Shown: positions 33,329 to 38,339, counted from the stretch's first letter. The stretch is DNA of 64,000 bases from Cyanobacteria bacterium J007 (GCA_003695985.1 RFFV01000139.1:8669-72668); one strand, 5' to 3'. Notes: generated by a model from the letters alone, not told the origin. Numbers and translations are program-made.

Positions 33329-33750
33329 GTTAAATATCCTTTACTGGCAGGATTTTGAGCGTGAAATATCTCCATTTTAAATCTGTCTTAAATCGTCGCG
33401 CGGTCGGCTGGAGATCGACTCCAATCGACCGATTAACTGCTTCGCCAGACTGGGGGATCTGCGAGTCAGTGGCGATCGCACCGGGATTTTACGACCGATT
33501 TTTGATGGTTCTTCTGTCCTATCGGCTTTTTTAAATTCCGCCTGTGATTTCGATCTCATGGGGGATCGGGCGATCGTGGAGTGCGCGCGATCGCCCGGTG
33601 AAATCATACTTCAGTTAGATCGCCGTTGGGAATAAAGTTCATACTAACGAGAGAGCGATTATTTCTCTATCTTCGTTAAGATAATTACTGTGAGATTAAA
33701 GATTTTTCTCTTTTTCCACTTTAGTTAATTGTTGTTTGATATTGACCCAC

Positions 33751-34539
33751 ATGACCATCGCCATTCGAGAAGACATTACCTATATTTTGCTCAAAAAACT
33801 GCGCGACGCTGGGGAAGCTGAAGGAAACCCCCAGATCGAGTTTTCGGCGGCAGATTTTGGCAGCAATCCCGTCGATGAGAAAACCTTACTCGGCAATCTC
33901 GACTATCTCAATCGCAATGGCTATATTGAAGTCGAATATACGGGCAGTCCCCAAGCCGAACAGGTCTCGAAACTGAGCGCCCCTGTAAACGTTAAAGCGG
34001 CAAAAATTACCGATAAAGGTCGGGAAATGCTGCAAAAAATGGAAGCGAATCCCCCGGAATCCCTCGCGGAAAATTCACAGCAGCGCGCGATCGGCGATCG
34101 GCAAGTTTCTTTCTTAGAAAAAGTTAGGGTAAAAGCTGCTCTTCCCGATATTTTTGACGCACGCAACCTCAGCGAAGTCGTGTTTAGAACGATGCGCGAT
34201 TTAATGCCCAATCAAACGGTGGATAAAGTCGCAGATCAATTGCACACACAAGCTGTTTCTAGTGATAATAAAGCGCTGCAAGATGAGATTGTCGATTTGT
34301 GGATGGATACCAATCCCATTGTCACCTGGATCGGTCGAATTCGTCCGCCTCTGAAGATCGATGCTGACTTATTCGTGCGACGGGTTGCCCAAGAAGGCGG
34401 TATACCGCGCTATACGGATCCGGAAACGGTAATTTGTGCGGTTTTTGCCGCAACTAAAGATGAGTTATCCCGCGATCGCGTGGAGGAAATTAGCGAGTTT
34501 CTGCCCGGTAGAATTCAACAAATGTGGCAAAACGCCTGA
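33751..34539 (+). CDS. DUF2267-like domain protein with an extra N-terminal domain.
   Basis: Two C-terminal segments fit the DUF2267 pattern: FLEKVRVKAALPD...NLSEVVFRTMRDLMP and FVRRVAQEGGIPRYTDPETVICAVFAATKDELSRDRVEEISEFLP. ATG at 33751; the TTG ORF starts at 33736. Confidence 0.55.
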   Translation: MTIAIREDITYILLKKLRDAGEAEGNPQIEFSAADFGSNPVDEKTLLGNLDYLNRNGYIEVEYTGSPQAEQVSKLSAPVNVKAAKITDKGREMLQKMEANPPESLAENSQQRAIGDRQVSFLEKVRVKAALPDIFDARNLSEVVFRTMRDLMPNQTVDKVADQLHTQAVSSDNKALQDEIVDLWMDTNPIVTWIGRIRPPLKIDADLFVRRVAQEGGIPRYTDPETVICAVFAATKDELSRDRVEEISEFLPGRIQQMWQNA

Positions 34540-34590
34540 ACGATCTAAGTTTAATAAATTCTGTCTGAAAAAGTTGAGGAAATTATCGAA

Positions 34591-34863
34591 ATGAGAACCC
34601 AAGAACACGAACCGAAAAACTTAACAATTAATCCTGGCGATTATGTTCCTAACGAATCGCAAACTTTAGAAGAAAAAGCCCGTCAAGTCGCGGTAGATGT
34701 TGCGGATATTACGATGGAACACGTTAAAATTCCCACCTATTTTATCGTTGAAGATGGAGAAGGAAATAAAGAAGCCCTCCATCACGTGCGAGATGCGGAA
34801 GAAATTTCTGACGTGATTCGCCAAGCGAGAATGGATGAGAATGGCGATCGCCGATGGTGGTAA
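34591..34863 (+). CDS. Small hypothetical protein, 90 aa.
   Basis: GAGG Shine-Dalgarno about 12 nt upstream. A clean intrinsic terminator follows at 34909-34938. Confidence 0.5.
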   Translation: MRTQEHEPKNLTINPGDYVPNESQTLEEKARQVAVDVADITMEHVKIPTYFIVEDGEGNKEALHHVRDAEEISDVIRQARMDENGDRRWW

Positions 34864-35740: not shown

Positions 35741-37274
35741 TCAGTCAAACTTCAAATTTCTGATTCGCGCCGATGCCTCTACAGCGATCGGAACGGGTCA
35801 CGTGATGCGCTGTTTGGCATTAGCGCAAGCTGCCAAACAAAACGGCGATCGCCCGATCTTCGTCATGGCTGATTGTAGCCGCGCGATCGCCGATCGCCTC
35901 AACGCAGAAGGAATGAAAGCGATCGAAATTGAAGTGCAACCCGGTAGTGTAGAAGATTGCCAAAAAACTATAGAAATTGCTCGTAAATTGAACATAAAAT
36001 ACTTGGTTTTAGACGGCTATCACTTTAAAACCAAGTATCAAAAAAGGATCGCAGAAGCGCAGTTAAACTTTTTATTTTTAGACGATTACGGACATAGTGA
36101 AAGTTATTATGCCAATTGGATATTAAATCAAAATATTTACGCCAATGACAGCTTTTACAAACAGAGATCGCCCGACACCCAACTGTTACTCGGCACTCGT
36201 TACGCCTTACTGCGCCGTGAATTTTGGGCGTGGCGAGGATGGCGACGAGAAATTGCCCCGATCGCCCGTAAAATTTTAGTTACATTAGGTGGCGGCGATT
36301 CCGATAACGTGACTTTAAAAGTCATTCAAGCCTTAGAAAATTTAGACAACCCAGATTTAGATGTCGCGATCGTCGTCGGTGGAAGTAATCCACATTATTC
36401 TAGTCTCGAAAAAGCAGCTCGATCTTCAACATTTTCAATTCGGTTGCTGCAAAATGTCACCGATATGCCAGAATTAATGGCGTGGGCCGATCTAGGGATT
36501 TCAGCCGGAGGGAGTACCTGTTGGGAATTGGCGTTTATGGGATTACCGAGTTTGACGGTGATTCTCGCGGAAAATCAACGCGCGATCGCCGAAACTTTAG
36601 CCAAAGAAAAGATTGCTATTAACTTAGGAGACTATCGAGAGTTAGACCTCCATACAATGACACAGGCGATCGCCGATTTGCTAGGTTCTAAAACTAAATG
36701 CGCGCAAATCTCGCAACGCGCCTGTCAACTCGTAGATGGAGAAGGAAGCGAACGAGTTTTAATGGTTTTAGAAGGCGAAAAGATTCGATTGCGATCGCCC
36801 CAGGACCGCGATTGTCGGTTACTGTGGCAATGGGCCAACGATCCGGATGTAAGAAATACCTCATTTTCCAGCGATCCCATCCCTTGGGAACATCACGTGC
36901 AATGGTGGCGATCGCACTTGAAGAATCCGAATTCATTGATTTATTTAGCACTCGATCGCGACGATCGCGCGATCGGTTCGATTCGCTATTTAATTGTCGA
37001 GAACGAAGCCGTTGTTTCCATCAATATCGATCGCCGATTTCGCGGTTTGGGTTACGGAACCCATTTGATTCGCTTGGGAACGCAAAGGCTATTTTCAAAT
37101 ACCACCGTTCCCATCGTCCACGCCTATATCAAACCGACAAACAAGCCCTCTATTAAAGCCTTTTCTAAATGCTATTTTAAATTCAAAGAAAACATTAGTT
37201 ATTGCGGACAGCCAGCCCTGTGTTTATCTTTAACCAGGCAAGAATATATCCAGGAATATATCAATAATATTTAA
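35730..37274 (+). CDS. Bifunctional PseG-like UDP-sugar hydrolase fused to a PseH-like GNAT N-acetyltransferase.
   Basis: 514 aa. The N-terminus FLIRADASTAIGTGHVMRCLALA is the PseG/SpsG signature. The C-terminal ~170 aa form a RimL-like GNAT domain. Confidence 0.75.
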   Translation: MGNNQSNFKFLIRADASTAIGTGHVMRCLALAQAAKQNGDRPIFVMADCSRAIADRLNAEGMKAIEIEVQPGSVEDCQKTIEIARKLNIKYLVLDGYHFKTKYQKRIAEAQLNFLFLDDYGHSESYYANWILNQNIYANDSFYKQRSPDTQLLLGTRYALLRREFWAWRGWRREIAPIARKILVTLGGGDSDNVTLKVIQALENLDNPDLDVAIVVGGSNPHYSSLEKAARSSTFSIRLLQNVTDMPELMAWADLGISAGGSTCWELAFMGLPSLTVILAENQRAIAETLAKEKIAINLGDYRELDLHTMTQAIADLLGSKTKCAQISQRACQLVDGEGSERVLMVLEGEKIRLRSPQDRDCRLLWQWANDPDVRNTSFSSDPIPWEHHVQWWRSHLKNPNSLIYLALDRDDRAIGSIRYLIVENEAVVSINIDRRFRGLGYGTHLIRLGTQRLFSNTTVPIVHAYIKPTNKPSIKAFSKCYFKFKENISYCGQPALCLSLTRQEYIQEYINNI

Positions 37275-37286
37275 TAACCTTCAATA

Positions 37287-38339
37287 ATGATGAACAGTAT
37301 TAAAATTGGTAACTATTCGATTGGAATCGATCGTCCGCCCTTTATTGTGGCCGAAATGTCCGGCAATCACAATCAATCTTTAGATCGTGCCTTAGAGATT
37401 GTCGAAGCGGCGGCTGCTGCTGGAGTTTCCGCAGTTAAACTACAAACTTATACGGCGGAGACGATGACCCTCGACCTCGCCGAAAGAGAGTTTTTTATTA
37501 ACAATACCGATAGTCTTTGGCATGGTTATTCTCTTTACCAACTTTACGAAAAAGCACATACTCCCTGGGAATGGCACCAGCCAATTTTCGATCGCTGCCA
37601 ACAATTGGGAATCCTCGGATTCAGTACACCTTTCGATGCAACTGCCGTTGATTTTCTCGAATCTTTAGACGTTCCTTGTTATAAAATTGCTTCTTTTGAA
37701 AATACCGATTTGCCCTTAATTCGTAAAGTTGCCAGTACGGGAAAACCGTTAATTATTTCTACAGGAATGGCAACGATCGCCGAATTAGATGAAACCGTGA
37801 GAACGGCGAAAGAAGCGGGATGTCAATCCCTCATTTTATTAAAATGTACGAGTACCTATCCGGCGACACCAGAGAATAGTAATTTGCGAACGCTTCCCCA
37901 TTTACGCCAACTTTTTGATGTCGAAGTCGGTCTTTCCGATCACACGATGGGTGTTGGCGTCGCGGTGGCGAGTGTTGCGTTTGGAGCCACATTTATCGAA
38001 AAACATTTTACCCTCAGACGAGCCGATGGAGGTGTCGATTCTGCTTTTTCGATGGAACCACAGGAGATGCAACAATTGGCGATCGAAACTCAAAAAGCTT
38101 GGCAATCATTGGGGCGAATTCAATACGGCCCGAGTGACGCAGAAAGGGCTTCAATGGGCTTTCGTCGTTCTTTGTATGTGGCGCGAGATATGAAGGCGGG
38201 GGACTGTTTTACGCCGGAGAATTTGCGGGCGATTCGTCCCGGGTTGGGCTTGTCGCCCAAATATTATCCAATCCTGCTGGGGAAAGTGGTGAAAAAAGAT
38301 TTAAAAAAGGGAACTCCGGTGAGTTGGGACGTGATTTGA
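37287..38339 (+). CDS. N-acetylneuraminate/pseudaminic acid synthase family (NeuB/PseI/SpsE-like).
   Basis: 350 aa. NeuB TIM-barrel N-terminus (IGIDRPPFIVAEMSGNHNQSLDRALEIVEAAAAAG) and a C-terminal SAF domain. Confidence 0.85.
   Translation: MMNSIKIGNYSIGIDRPPFIVAEMSGNHNQSLDRALEIVEAAAAAGVSAVKLQTYTAETMTLDLAEREFFINNTDSLWHGYSLYQLYEKAHTPWEWHQPIFDRCQQLGILGFSTPFDATAVDFLESLDVPCYKIASFENTDLPLIRKVASTGKPLIISTGMATIAELDETVRTAKEAGCQSLILLKCTSTYPATPENSNLRTLPHLRQLFDVEVGLSDHTMGVGVAVASVAFGATFIEKHFTLRRADGGVDSAFSMEPQEMQQLAIETQKAWQSLGRIQYGPSDAERASMGFRRSLYVARDMKAGDCFTPENLRAIRPGLGLSPKYYPILLGKVVKKDLKKGTPVSWDVI

Follow-up and report, generated by a model that had tools for sequence, protein, structure and literature searches.

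Probable distal part of a CMP-pseudaminic acid pathway beside an MVP gene in Oxynema aestuarii

The window (the whole 64-kb stretch of DNA analysed) belongs to the genome of Oxynema aestuarii (CP051167.1), and the locus under study comprises an MVP homologue, a DUF2267-domain gene, a small open reading frame termed orf90 and a trio of pse genes. With reference to Table 1, the gene content and coordinates claimed by an earlier sequence-only reading of this DNA were all found to be present as described. The cytidylyltransferase and fusion genes overlap by 11 bp, the gap between the fusion and PseI is 12 bp, and a promoter-like site, on weak evidence, lies in the 139-bp gap 5' of the cytidylyltransferase gene. 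The trio (35003-38339) appears to form one compact transcription unit, presumably an operon. The spacer between pseI and fabG showed the lowest conservation in comparison with Oxynema sp. CENA135 (72.6% with gaps).

Table 1. Features of the MVP-pse locus, in positions of the window.
Feature	Position	Strand	Assignment or evidence
MVP homologue, 889 aa	30659-33328	-	Pfam Vault, Vault_2/3/4, MVP_shoulder
Divergent intergenic spacer, MVP/DUF2267, 422 bp	33329-33750	.	sequence read
DUF2267-domain protein, 262 aa	33751-34539	+	PF10025
orf90, small conserved protein, 90 aa	34591-34863	+	no family assignment
SpsF/FlmC-type cytidylyltransferase (CTP_transf_3), 245 aa	35003-35740	+	PF02348
PseG-GNAT fusion, 514 aa	35730-37274	+	TIGR03590 and GNAT Pfam matches
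UDP-sugar hydrolase domain of fusion	~35754-36599	+	PseG
GNAT N-acetyltransferase domain of fusion	~36783-37178	+	Pfam GNAT
PseI, NeuB and SAF domains, 350 aa	37287-38339	+	TIGR03586
7-nt tandem repeat GATTTTA/GATTGTA, ~7 copies	38338-38386	.	convergent pseI-fabG spacer

MVP is a neighbour gene that lies outside the sugar unit. Its dN/dS against Oxynema sp. CENA135 was 0.076, and homologues with 65-84% identity occur in 40 other species, in which the neighbouring genes are not conserved. The MVP/DUF2267 spacer is 94.6% identical to that of CENA135; an Rfam search of it returned no family and consensus promoter-like matches were weak only. The DUF2267 protein scored 84.8 bits against PF10025 (cut-off 29.8), the match covering residues 125-263 of a 267-aa ORF with a TTG start, five residues longer than the 262-aa form, and the Pfam scan assigned no family to its N-terminal ~120 aa. 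Full-length homologues with 44-53% identity were found in many cyanobacterial genera, those of Lyngbya and Aerosakkonema residing in unrelated gene contexts, and the dN/dS for the Oxynema strain pair was 0.038; it is a conserved, stand-alone cyanobacterial gene. For orf90, no match was obtained in Pfam, NCBIfam or PADLOC; 38 representative clusters were retrieved at E <= 1e-3, 20 of them also passing E <= 1e-10, with 55-78% identity, and its dN/dS was 0.25 for the same pair; it is a genuine conserved gene. None of the further MVP, pse or DUF2267 loci inspected contains orf90, and DUF2267 and orf90 are each conserved as independent genes.

The synthase closing the trio gave the clearest family assignment. 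PseI scored 493 bits against TIGR03586, above the curated equivalog cut-off of 340.25, and 299 bits against the NeuB_NnaB model, below its cut-off of 399.65. It carries the NeuB and SAF domains (PF03102 and PF08666), is 74-77% identical to other cyanobacterial PseI proteins and had a dN/dS of 0.088 for the Oxynema strain pair. Its best PDB match was the solved Pse synthase 8h2c (283.3 bits), compared with 176.5 bits for B. subtilis SpsE 1vli and 170 bits for NeuB. The activity that defines PseI, condensation of 2,4-diacetamido-2,4,6-trideoxy-L-altrose with PEP, is predicted here from sequence. Since the protein passes the PseI equivalog cut-off, fails that of NeuB and is nearer to 8h2c than to SpsE, pseudaminic acid is the most likely product, rather than legionaminic acid of the B. 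subtilis type.

The hydrolase half of the fusion scored 234.1 bits against the PseG model TIGR03590 (cut-off 153.55), and assignment as PseG was taken to require, besides passing this curated threshold, that the N-terminal G-x-G-H motif hold the catalytic histidine. The latter is present as His24, which aligns to His17 of C. jejuni PseG 3hbm, reportedly the catalytic residue (Rangarajan et al. 2009, cited in PMC7439481). Pfam detected Glyco_tran_28_C together with Acetyltransf_3/1, the GNAT matches falling on residues 352-483 (PF13302, 52.9 bits), and an RGLGYG acetyl-CoA loop is seen in this half. PDB matches of the fusion were 3hbm (PseG), 3eo4 and 4xpk (PseH), with the best GNAT match being MJ1062 and 4xpk reaching E = 4e-4 only. 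The GNAT half scored 29.1 bits against the PseH model TIGR03585 (cut-off 93.1). Hence, of the proposed PseG-PseH fusion, the PseG assignment and the fused acetyltransferase were upheld, while membership of the PseH family as modelled was not. A PseH-like role may still be assigned to the GNAT half, since the minimal Coleofasciculus cluster, from the set described below, yielded no acetyltransferase besides the fused one.

A similar picture emerged for the cytidylyltransferase, which had been read as SpsF/PseF-like: the SpsF type was borne out (PF02348 CTP_transf_3, 111.5 bits), and it is not a canonical PseF, scoring 23.1 bits against TIGR03584 where 205.7 is the cut-off. Its best PDB match was the uncharacterised cytidylyltransferase 6oew. 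The SpsF/FlmC type is the sole cytidylyltransferase in seven cyanobacterial pse clusters with PseB and/or PseC, and FlmC offers the precedent of a non-PseF cytidylyltransferase that completes a Pse pathway (PMC7591256). As the PseF model failed, it is from gene context and this precedent that the protein can be proposed as a CMP-pseudaminic acid synthetase and functional analogue of PseF.

Taken together, these family assignments support the earlier view of the trio as the back half of a route to a CMP-nonulosonic acid in which PseG and an acetyltransferase are fused. The same reading held that PseB and PseC equivalents are missing from the window, and this was confirmed: neither Polysacc_synt_2 nor DegT was found in the Pfam scan of the 28 large ORFs of the window, and tblastn of cyanobacterial PseB and PseC queries against all 64 kb gave zero matches, so that the PseB (TIGR03589) and PseC (TIGR03588) of a complete CMP-Pse pathway are not encoded within it. 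No glycosyltransferase or acceptor could be identified at the Oxynema pse locus either.

The suggestion that nonulosonic-acid glycosylation is uncommon in cyanobacteria was not supported. The fusion protein returned 7333 homologues at E <= 1e-20, the best 120 listed being almost all cyanobacterial, cyanobacterial PseB proteins made up the best 120 matches of a PseB search, all with at least 76% identity, and cyanobacteria are among the phyla richest in NeuB-family synthases (PMC8208679). Clusters were compared from Moorena producens JHB (CP017708), Planktothricoides (CP159837), Nostoc sp. T09 (MTAV01000053), Coleofasciculus (JAVJNP010000128), Calothrix NIES-2100 and an Oscillatoriales MAG. In these six genomes an SpsF/FlmC-type cytidylyltransferase and PseI follow PseB and/or PseC, with no second cytidylyltransferase in the clusters, and the PseG-GNAT fusion is present in all but Calothrix NIES-2100. 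Where scored, PseB gave 517-546 bits against TIGR03589 (cut-off 407.75) and PseC 556-570 bits against TIGR03588 (cut-off 423.5). Both the fusion and the complete gene set occur broadly among cyanobacteria, and the Oxynema trio is a distal fragment of this common set.

In composition, the region had been described as AT-richer than its flanks while still carrying HIP1 sites, and both points held. The GC content is 0.447 over 33329-38339 against 0.530 for the window, and the GC3 profile agrees: the six genes from MVP to PseI average 0.43, and the remaining 33 genes 0.59 +/- 0.065 (Mann-Whitney p = 3.7e-6). HIP1 sites occur at an almost normal density, the 12 GCGATCGC sites of 33329-38339 amounting to 2.4/kb against 2.7/kb window-wide; pseI itself contains zero. 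A horizontally acquired island, such as the proposed shared accessory island, would be expected to combine atypical composition with mobility or insertion signatures. The low GC3 is atypical; no tRNA was detected, the annotated ORFs include no integrase, and no flanking repeats were seen beyond HIP1. The contiguous low-GC3 block allows for co-acquisition of the genes.

A possible functional link between the vault gene and the sugar genes had also been put forward, with synteny set beforehand as the test capable of refuting it, and outside Oxynema synteny was absent. Adjacent MVP and pse genes were seen in two Oxynema strains only, AP17 and CENA135; none of 40 MVP loci of other species (22 with at least 5 kb on both flanks), none of eight pse loci from seven cyanobacterial genomes and none of 80 PseB-anchored metagenome loci showed the arrangement, and neither of two DUF2267 loci had co-occurring MVP or pse. 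The two gene sets are ~2.0 Mb apart in Calothrix NIES-2100 (MVP 5.23-5.25 Mb, pse 7.26-7.27 Mb), ~0.86 Mb apart in MAG contig_27210 (MVP 1.89-1.91 Mb, pse 1.03-1.04 Mb) and on separate contigs in Nostoc T09. No conserved MVP-pse/DUF2267/orf90 module was thus found in independent lineages. A module in which a vault shell, cargo or envelope component is pseudaminylated could appeal to the adjacency kept in two Oxynema strains and to the low GC3 common to all six genes. However, DNA of AP17 and CENA135 is ~96% identical across the locus and, for that reason, their shared gene order tells little; MVP lies on the opposite strand, the locus lacks a transferase, and the distances of 0.9-2 Mb in MVP-positive genomes further oppose it, so that this reading is largely refuted and highly improbable. 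Equally hard to credit is its narrower form, in which the low-GC3 block from MVP through DUF2267, orf90, cytidylyltransferase and PseG/GNAT to PseI is a lineage-specific unit whose CMP-Pse, or some variant produced in the absence of canonical PseB/PseC, decorates the vault particle or an associated component; if true, such decoration would provide the first biochemical handle on bacterial vault function. The juxtaposition seems to have arisen by chance as the genome was arranged and not to reflect a functional link.

Two further readings concern the trio itself. It could be a stranded remnant, PseB and PseC having been lost genome-wide, and be non-functional for Pse or recruited to another substrate. 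Elsewhere PseB/PseC stand directly 5' of the cytidylyltransferase where Oxynema has DUF2267 and orf90, no adjoining glycosyltransferase is present, and, of the genes compared between the two strains, dS is highest in the pse genes and amino acid identity lowest (90%) in the cytidylyltransferase. No Oxynema PseB occurs among the 120 best cyanobacterial PseB matches listed, which is uninformative because these all have at least 76% identity and Oxynema Pse proteins are slightly more divergent than that. Against a remnant, none of the three ORFs is interrupted or of unusual length, their catalytic motifs are conserved, dN/dS of 0.09-0.27 for the AP17/CENA135 pair indicates purifying selection, and split clusters are known, Planktothricoides having no PseB within 10 kb upstream; we consider it unlikely. 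A different nonulosonic acid, be it legionaminic acid made along UDP-linked lines as by the B. subtilis sps set or some modified derivative, is more doubtful still. The spsE/F/G/D analogy is good at the family level, the cytidylyltransferase being of SpsF type and the hydrolase and GNAT families being common to SpsG and SpsD (PMC7439481), but the synthase scores set out above oppose it, and orthologous cyanobacterial clusters encode the inverting dehydratase PseB above the TIGR03589 cut-off, their dehydratases reaching only 66-74 bits against the LegB model (cut-off 475).

The trio therefore probably accounts for the final four reactions of the standard CMP-pseudaminic acid pathway, with PseB/PseC and a transferase encoded elsewhere and with an MVP adjacency that is genus-specific and shows no sign of shared function. 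The GNAT half would N-acetylate UDP-4-amino-4,6-dideoxy-beta-L-AltNAc (the PseH step), the PseG half would then take off UDP, PseI would join the freed sugar to phosphoenolpyruvate, yielding Pse5Ac7Ac, and the SpsF/FlmC-type cytidylyltransferase would activate this to CMP-Pse. PseB, PseC and the CMP-Pse-using transferase would be supplied in trans from elsewhere on the Oxynema chromosome. The locus itself is ordinary.

Among known systems, the clusters of Coleofasciculus, Nostoc T09, Moorena and Planktothricoides are alike in running from the cytidylyltransferase to the PseG-GNAT fusion and then PseI, and Oxynema shares 74-77% identity with the cyanobacterial clusters in PseI, 49-54% in the fusion and 42-62% in the cytidylyltransferase. 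Those clusters start with PseB and PseC and run on into glycosyltransferases, frequent additions being a Pse-associated methylase, aldo-keto reductases or HisH/HisF-like genes, whereas in Oxynema the trio stands alone with unrelated genes on both sides. The PseB-C-H-G-I-F pathway of C. jejuni and H. pylori is matched in PseG and PseI by curated cut-offs and in the retained catalytic histidine of PseG, and the order of the chemistry is presumably the same. Oxynema differs in an acetyltransferase fused to the PseG C-terminus and too divergent for the PseH model, in a cytidylyltransferase of the SpsF/FlmC-type CTP_transf_3 branch instead of TIGR03584 PseF, and in a locus without PseB and PseC. 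Cyanobacteria are not known to have flagella, and for this reason the Pse acceptor in Oxynema would not be flagellin.

In Caulobacter crescentus, FlmC, which is not homologous to PseF, is encoded directly 5' of the PseG homologue FlmD and carries out the CMP-Pse-forming step of a reconstituted six-enzyme pathway (PMC7591256). The likeness, drawn from gene position and described role, lies in a non-PseF cytidylyltransferase upstream of PseG; in Caulobacter, PseH (FlmH) is encoded on its own and the sugar is destined for flagellin. The B. subtilis spsC-G/spsM set comprises the GNAT SpsD, PseG-like SpsG, NeuB-family SpsE and putative cytidylyltransferase SpsF and leads to legionaminic acid (PMC7439481). 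The match to this set claimed from the sequence holds for the protein families of the distal steps, which are common to the Oxynema trio, and not for the product, which is likely other than legionaminic acid given a synthase far nearer to PseI; the Oxynema hydrolase and acetyltransferase are moreover fused.

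The source chromosome, CP051167.1 (GCA_012295525.1) of Oxynema aestuarii AP17, is 6.36 Mb in size and belongs to a host rich in the short repeat HIP1 (174 GCGATCGC sites in 64 kb vs about 4 expected). Every gene that the sequence-only reading had listed for the locus was located where that reading had placed it, as compiled in the table. The first and second sugar genes overlap by 11 bp and the second and third are separated by a gap of 12 bp, while housekeeping genes occupy both flanks, with acetate kinase and phosphoketolase on one side and FabG, thioredoxin, PrmA and SerA on the other. 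For the contig of the comparison strain Oxynema sp. CENA135 (L046, 2013-4930), the stored table lists no phosphoketolase gene; the DNA of this interval aligns to the whole AP17 xfp gene with 98.6% amino-acid identity over 811 positions, and the missing call probably reflects annotation or a pseudogene flag and not a loss. Two further ORFs of the window are unrelated to the sugar/vault locus, one (17536-20409) encoding a product of 957 aa with a two-partner-secretion (TPS) domain and the other (2202-8183) a sensor kinase-like product of 1993 aa with multiple domains.

Features of the vault and sugar gene locus in window positions, with dN/dS between AP17 and CENA135
Feature	Position	Strand	Remark	dN/dS
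MVP (bacterial major vault protein homologue)	30659-33328	-	complete vault Pfam domain set	0.076
Divergent spacer MVP/DUF2267			422 bp	
DUF2267 protein	33751-34539	+		0.038
orf90	34591-34863	+	90 aa	0.25
Cytidylyltransferase	35003-35740		co-directional with other two sugar genes	0.27
PseG-GNAT fusion	35730-37274		co-directional with other two sugar genes	0.17
PseI	37287-38339		co-directional with other two sugar genes	0.088

Among the three sugar gene products, PseI passed the curated NCBIfam equivalog model for pseudaminic acid synthase (493 bits vs a cut-off of 340.25) and failed the N-acetylneuraminate synthase model (299 bits vs 399.65). Among solved structures its best match is the pseudaminic acid synthase 8h2c at 283 bits; B. 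subtilis SpsE (176) and Neisseria NeuB (170) lag far behind. The N-terminal two thirds of the fusion protein passed the PseG model (234.1 vs 153.55), with His24 aligned to the catalytic His17 of C. jejuni PseG, and the C-terminal third is a GNAT acetyltransferase carrying an RGLGYG acetyl-CoA loop that scored below the cut-off of the PseH model (29 bits vs 93.1). The first sugar gene encodes a CTP_transf_3 cytidylyltransferase (111.5 bits), which falls outside the canonical PseF family (23 bits vs 205.7) and has the uncharacterised cytidylyltransferase 6oew as its best structural relative.

Sugar pathways of this kind had been considered uncommon in cyanobacteria, a view overturned by the 7333 homologues of the fusion protein recovered at E <= 1e-20. 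The 120 best of these share the same architecture of about 500 aa and, where named, are almost all from cyanobacteria (Nostoc, Calothrix, Moorena, Planktothrix, Coleofasciculus, Anabaena and others), together with Chloroflexus. Neighbourhoods were viewed in Moorena producens JHB, Planktothricoides, Nostoc sp. T09, Coleofasciculus, Calothrix NIES-2100, a 7.6-Mb MAG and one further contig, and a recurrent plan can be discerned in which PseB and PseC, the first two enzymes of the pathway, are followed by optional extras (a pseudaminic acid (Pse)-associated methylase, aldo-keto reductases or HisH/HisF-like genes), an SpsF-type cytidylyltransferase, the PseG-GNAT fusion, PseI and glycosyltransferases. 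Where scored, PseB of these clusters passed TIGR03589 (517-546 bits vs 407.75) and PseC passed TIGR03588 (556-570 bits vs 423.5). Calothrix NIES-2100 carries separate genes in place of the fusion, and in Planktothricoides the arrangement is split, the 10 kb upstream being free of PseB. Within the clusters viewed, the SpsF-type enzyme is the sole cytidylyltransferase, and the minimal Coleofasciculus cluster yielded no acetyltransferase besides the fused GNAT; hence the SpsF-type enzyme presumably fills the PseF role and the fused GNAT the PseH role, though both fail the curated models. The Oxynema trio is a truncated copy of the Pse gene set carried by many cyanobacteria and already named by annotation pipelines.

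The cytidylyltransferase of Oxynema shares 62% identity with its Planktothricoides counterpart (L048, 5990-6727) but just 42-47% with other cyanobacterial ones, while PseI and the PseG-GNAT fusion are without special Planktothricoides affinity, an unevenness that implies a mosaic history of the cluster. Very large GT41-family glycosyltransferases follow the pse cluster in two other cyanobacterial loci, including a protein of 1503 aa and a 2182-aa GT4+GT2+GT41 fusion (L049, 3294-10703; L051, 12829-21491), and in the former locus a type IV pilin gene follows as well. These GT41-type giants and the pilin gene hint at a possible protein acceptor, for example pilin.

A six-frame tblastn of the whole 64-kb window detected neither PseB nor PseC, nor any Pse methylase or transferase of the GT41 type. 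When 5.8 billion proteins were searched with Coleofasciculus PseB, the 120 best matches listed were all at least 76% identical and none was from Oxynema, whose Pse proteins diverge somewhat beyond that range; nor was the Oxynema contig among the matches listed when JGI metagenomes were scanned with an alignment of PseB. Supply of PseB and PseC in trans appears more likely than a dead pathway, as split arrangements do occur, for instance in Planktothricoides. Gene order is identical between CENA135 and AP17 at about 96% DNA identity, and all six genes are under purifying selection (table).

The adjacency of MVP and the sugar genes had been taken as a possible functional tie, and this proposal failed its synteny test, with no comparative support from either side. 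DUF2267, orf90, the cytidylyltransferase, PseG-GNAT and PseI were each absent from all 40 MVP loci of other species (tblastn, E <= 1e-5), 22 of which had at least 5 kb on both sides, and nothing convincing emerged for DUF2267 and orf90 even at E <= 10. Reciprocally, MVP, DUF2267 and orf90 were found in 0/8 cyanobacterial pse loci and in 0/80 PseB-anchored metagenome loci (722 kb). Genomes possessing both systems keep them apart, namely Calothrix NIES-2100 (MVP at 5.23-5.25 Mb, pse at 7.26-7.27 Mb), MAG contig_27210 (1.89-1.91 Mb and 1.03-1.04 Mb, respectively) and Nostoc sp. T09, where they lie on separate contigs.

A conserved giant CBS-domain/sensor protein directly upstream of MVP was suggested in 17 loci by all-against-all clustering of flank ORFs, and was rejected because single linkage had joined the members through generic PAS/GAF/HisKA/REC domains whose positions and strands varied. 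Once this domain-sharing artefact was removed, no conserved neighbour of MVP was found, the commonest flank families occurring in at most 6 of the 40 loci. MVP is a stand-alone gene of variable contexts; as no conserved partner exists across 40 bacterial genomes, its neighbourhood is no guide to its function and the glycosylation link can be dropped. MVP homologues are 65-84% identical in amino acids across many cyanobacterial orders (L006-L045), and also appear in MAGs labelled Anaerolineae (L030, 71%), Thermoflexales (L043, 75%), Anaerolineales (L045, 77%) and Actinomycetota (L036, 75%), values that suggest either a recent horizontal transfer or the mis-binning of contigs from cyanobacteria.

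A shared accessory island had also been proposed, its one support being composition: low GC3 runs without a break through the six genes MVP to PseI (mean 0.43 vs 0.59 +/- 0.065 for the other 33 window genes; Mann-Whitney p = 3.7e-6), and just 3 of those 33 fall below 0.49. Against it, HIP1 density across the block is near normal (2.1-2.4 per kb, with pseI devoid of sites), neither tRNAs nor integrases were found around it, and the direct and inverted repeats that flank it all derive from HIP1. The data are equally compatible with co-acquisition and with the separate arrival of several low-GC genes at one permissive site. A 2.1-kb stretch free of HIP1 (36916-39007; window average 2.7 sites per kb) extends from the end of the fusion gene across pseI into the 3' part of fabG. 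The convergent pseI-fabG spacer contains a 7-nt tandem repeat, GATTTTA/GATTGTA, of about 7 units (38338-38386), and is the least conserved against CENA135 (72.6% with gaps; other spacers 91-98%). A defence-system role was discarded, no PADLOC match being obtained for any of the six proteins, as was a structured RNA or riboswitch in the spacers, where the search gave just one sub-threshold chance match, inside the MVP gene.

The DUF2267 protein belongs to a conserved, full-length cyanobacterial family whose contexts elsewhere are unrelated. Its N-terminal ~120 aa (33751-34120) have no family match ahead of the Pfam DUF2267 part, and many cyanobacteria have homologues of 260-285 aa that match the protein end to end (100% query coverage, 44-53% identity); the N-terminus looks like an undescribed domain fused to DUF2267. 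orf90 is a genuine small gene without a Pfam, NCBIfam or PADLOC match. Its family, conserved but unnamed, comprises 20 representative clusters at E <= 1e-10, with 55-78% identity along most of the protein. Weak multi-stretch matches of orf90 in large proteins of unrelated Pfam content were noisy and disregarded. A recurrent DUF2267-orf90 pair, or an association of either with pse or MVP, was rejected, being absent from all other loci examined, even at E <= 10.

Overall, Pse-type clusters that combine a PseG-acetyltransferase fusion with an SpsF/FlmC-type cytidylyltransferase are common and apparently little studied in filamentous cyanobacteria, and are often followed by GT41-type giants, with pilin, S-layer and sheath polysaccharide raised as candidate acceptors. 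The earlier biochemical reading of the trio, as the later steps of a pseudaminic or legionaminic acid pathway, was essentially right, but the sugar should read pseudaminic acid: the far stronger affinity of PseI and the inverting PseB of orthologous clusters point to this product rather than legionaminic acid, as judged from sequence. The B. subtilis sps set comprises the same families as the trio, yet its product is legionaminic acid (PMC7439481). For a cytidylyltransferase outside the PseF family, FlmC of C. crescentus provides the experimental precedent, having "no homology to RkpN or PseF", being co-encoded with a PseG homologue and completing a six-enzyme Pse pathway reconstituted in E. 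coli (PMC7591256).
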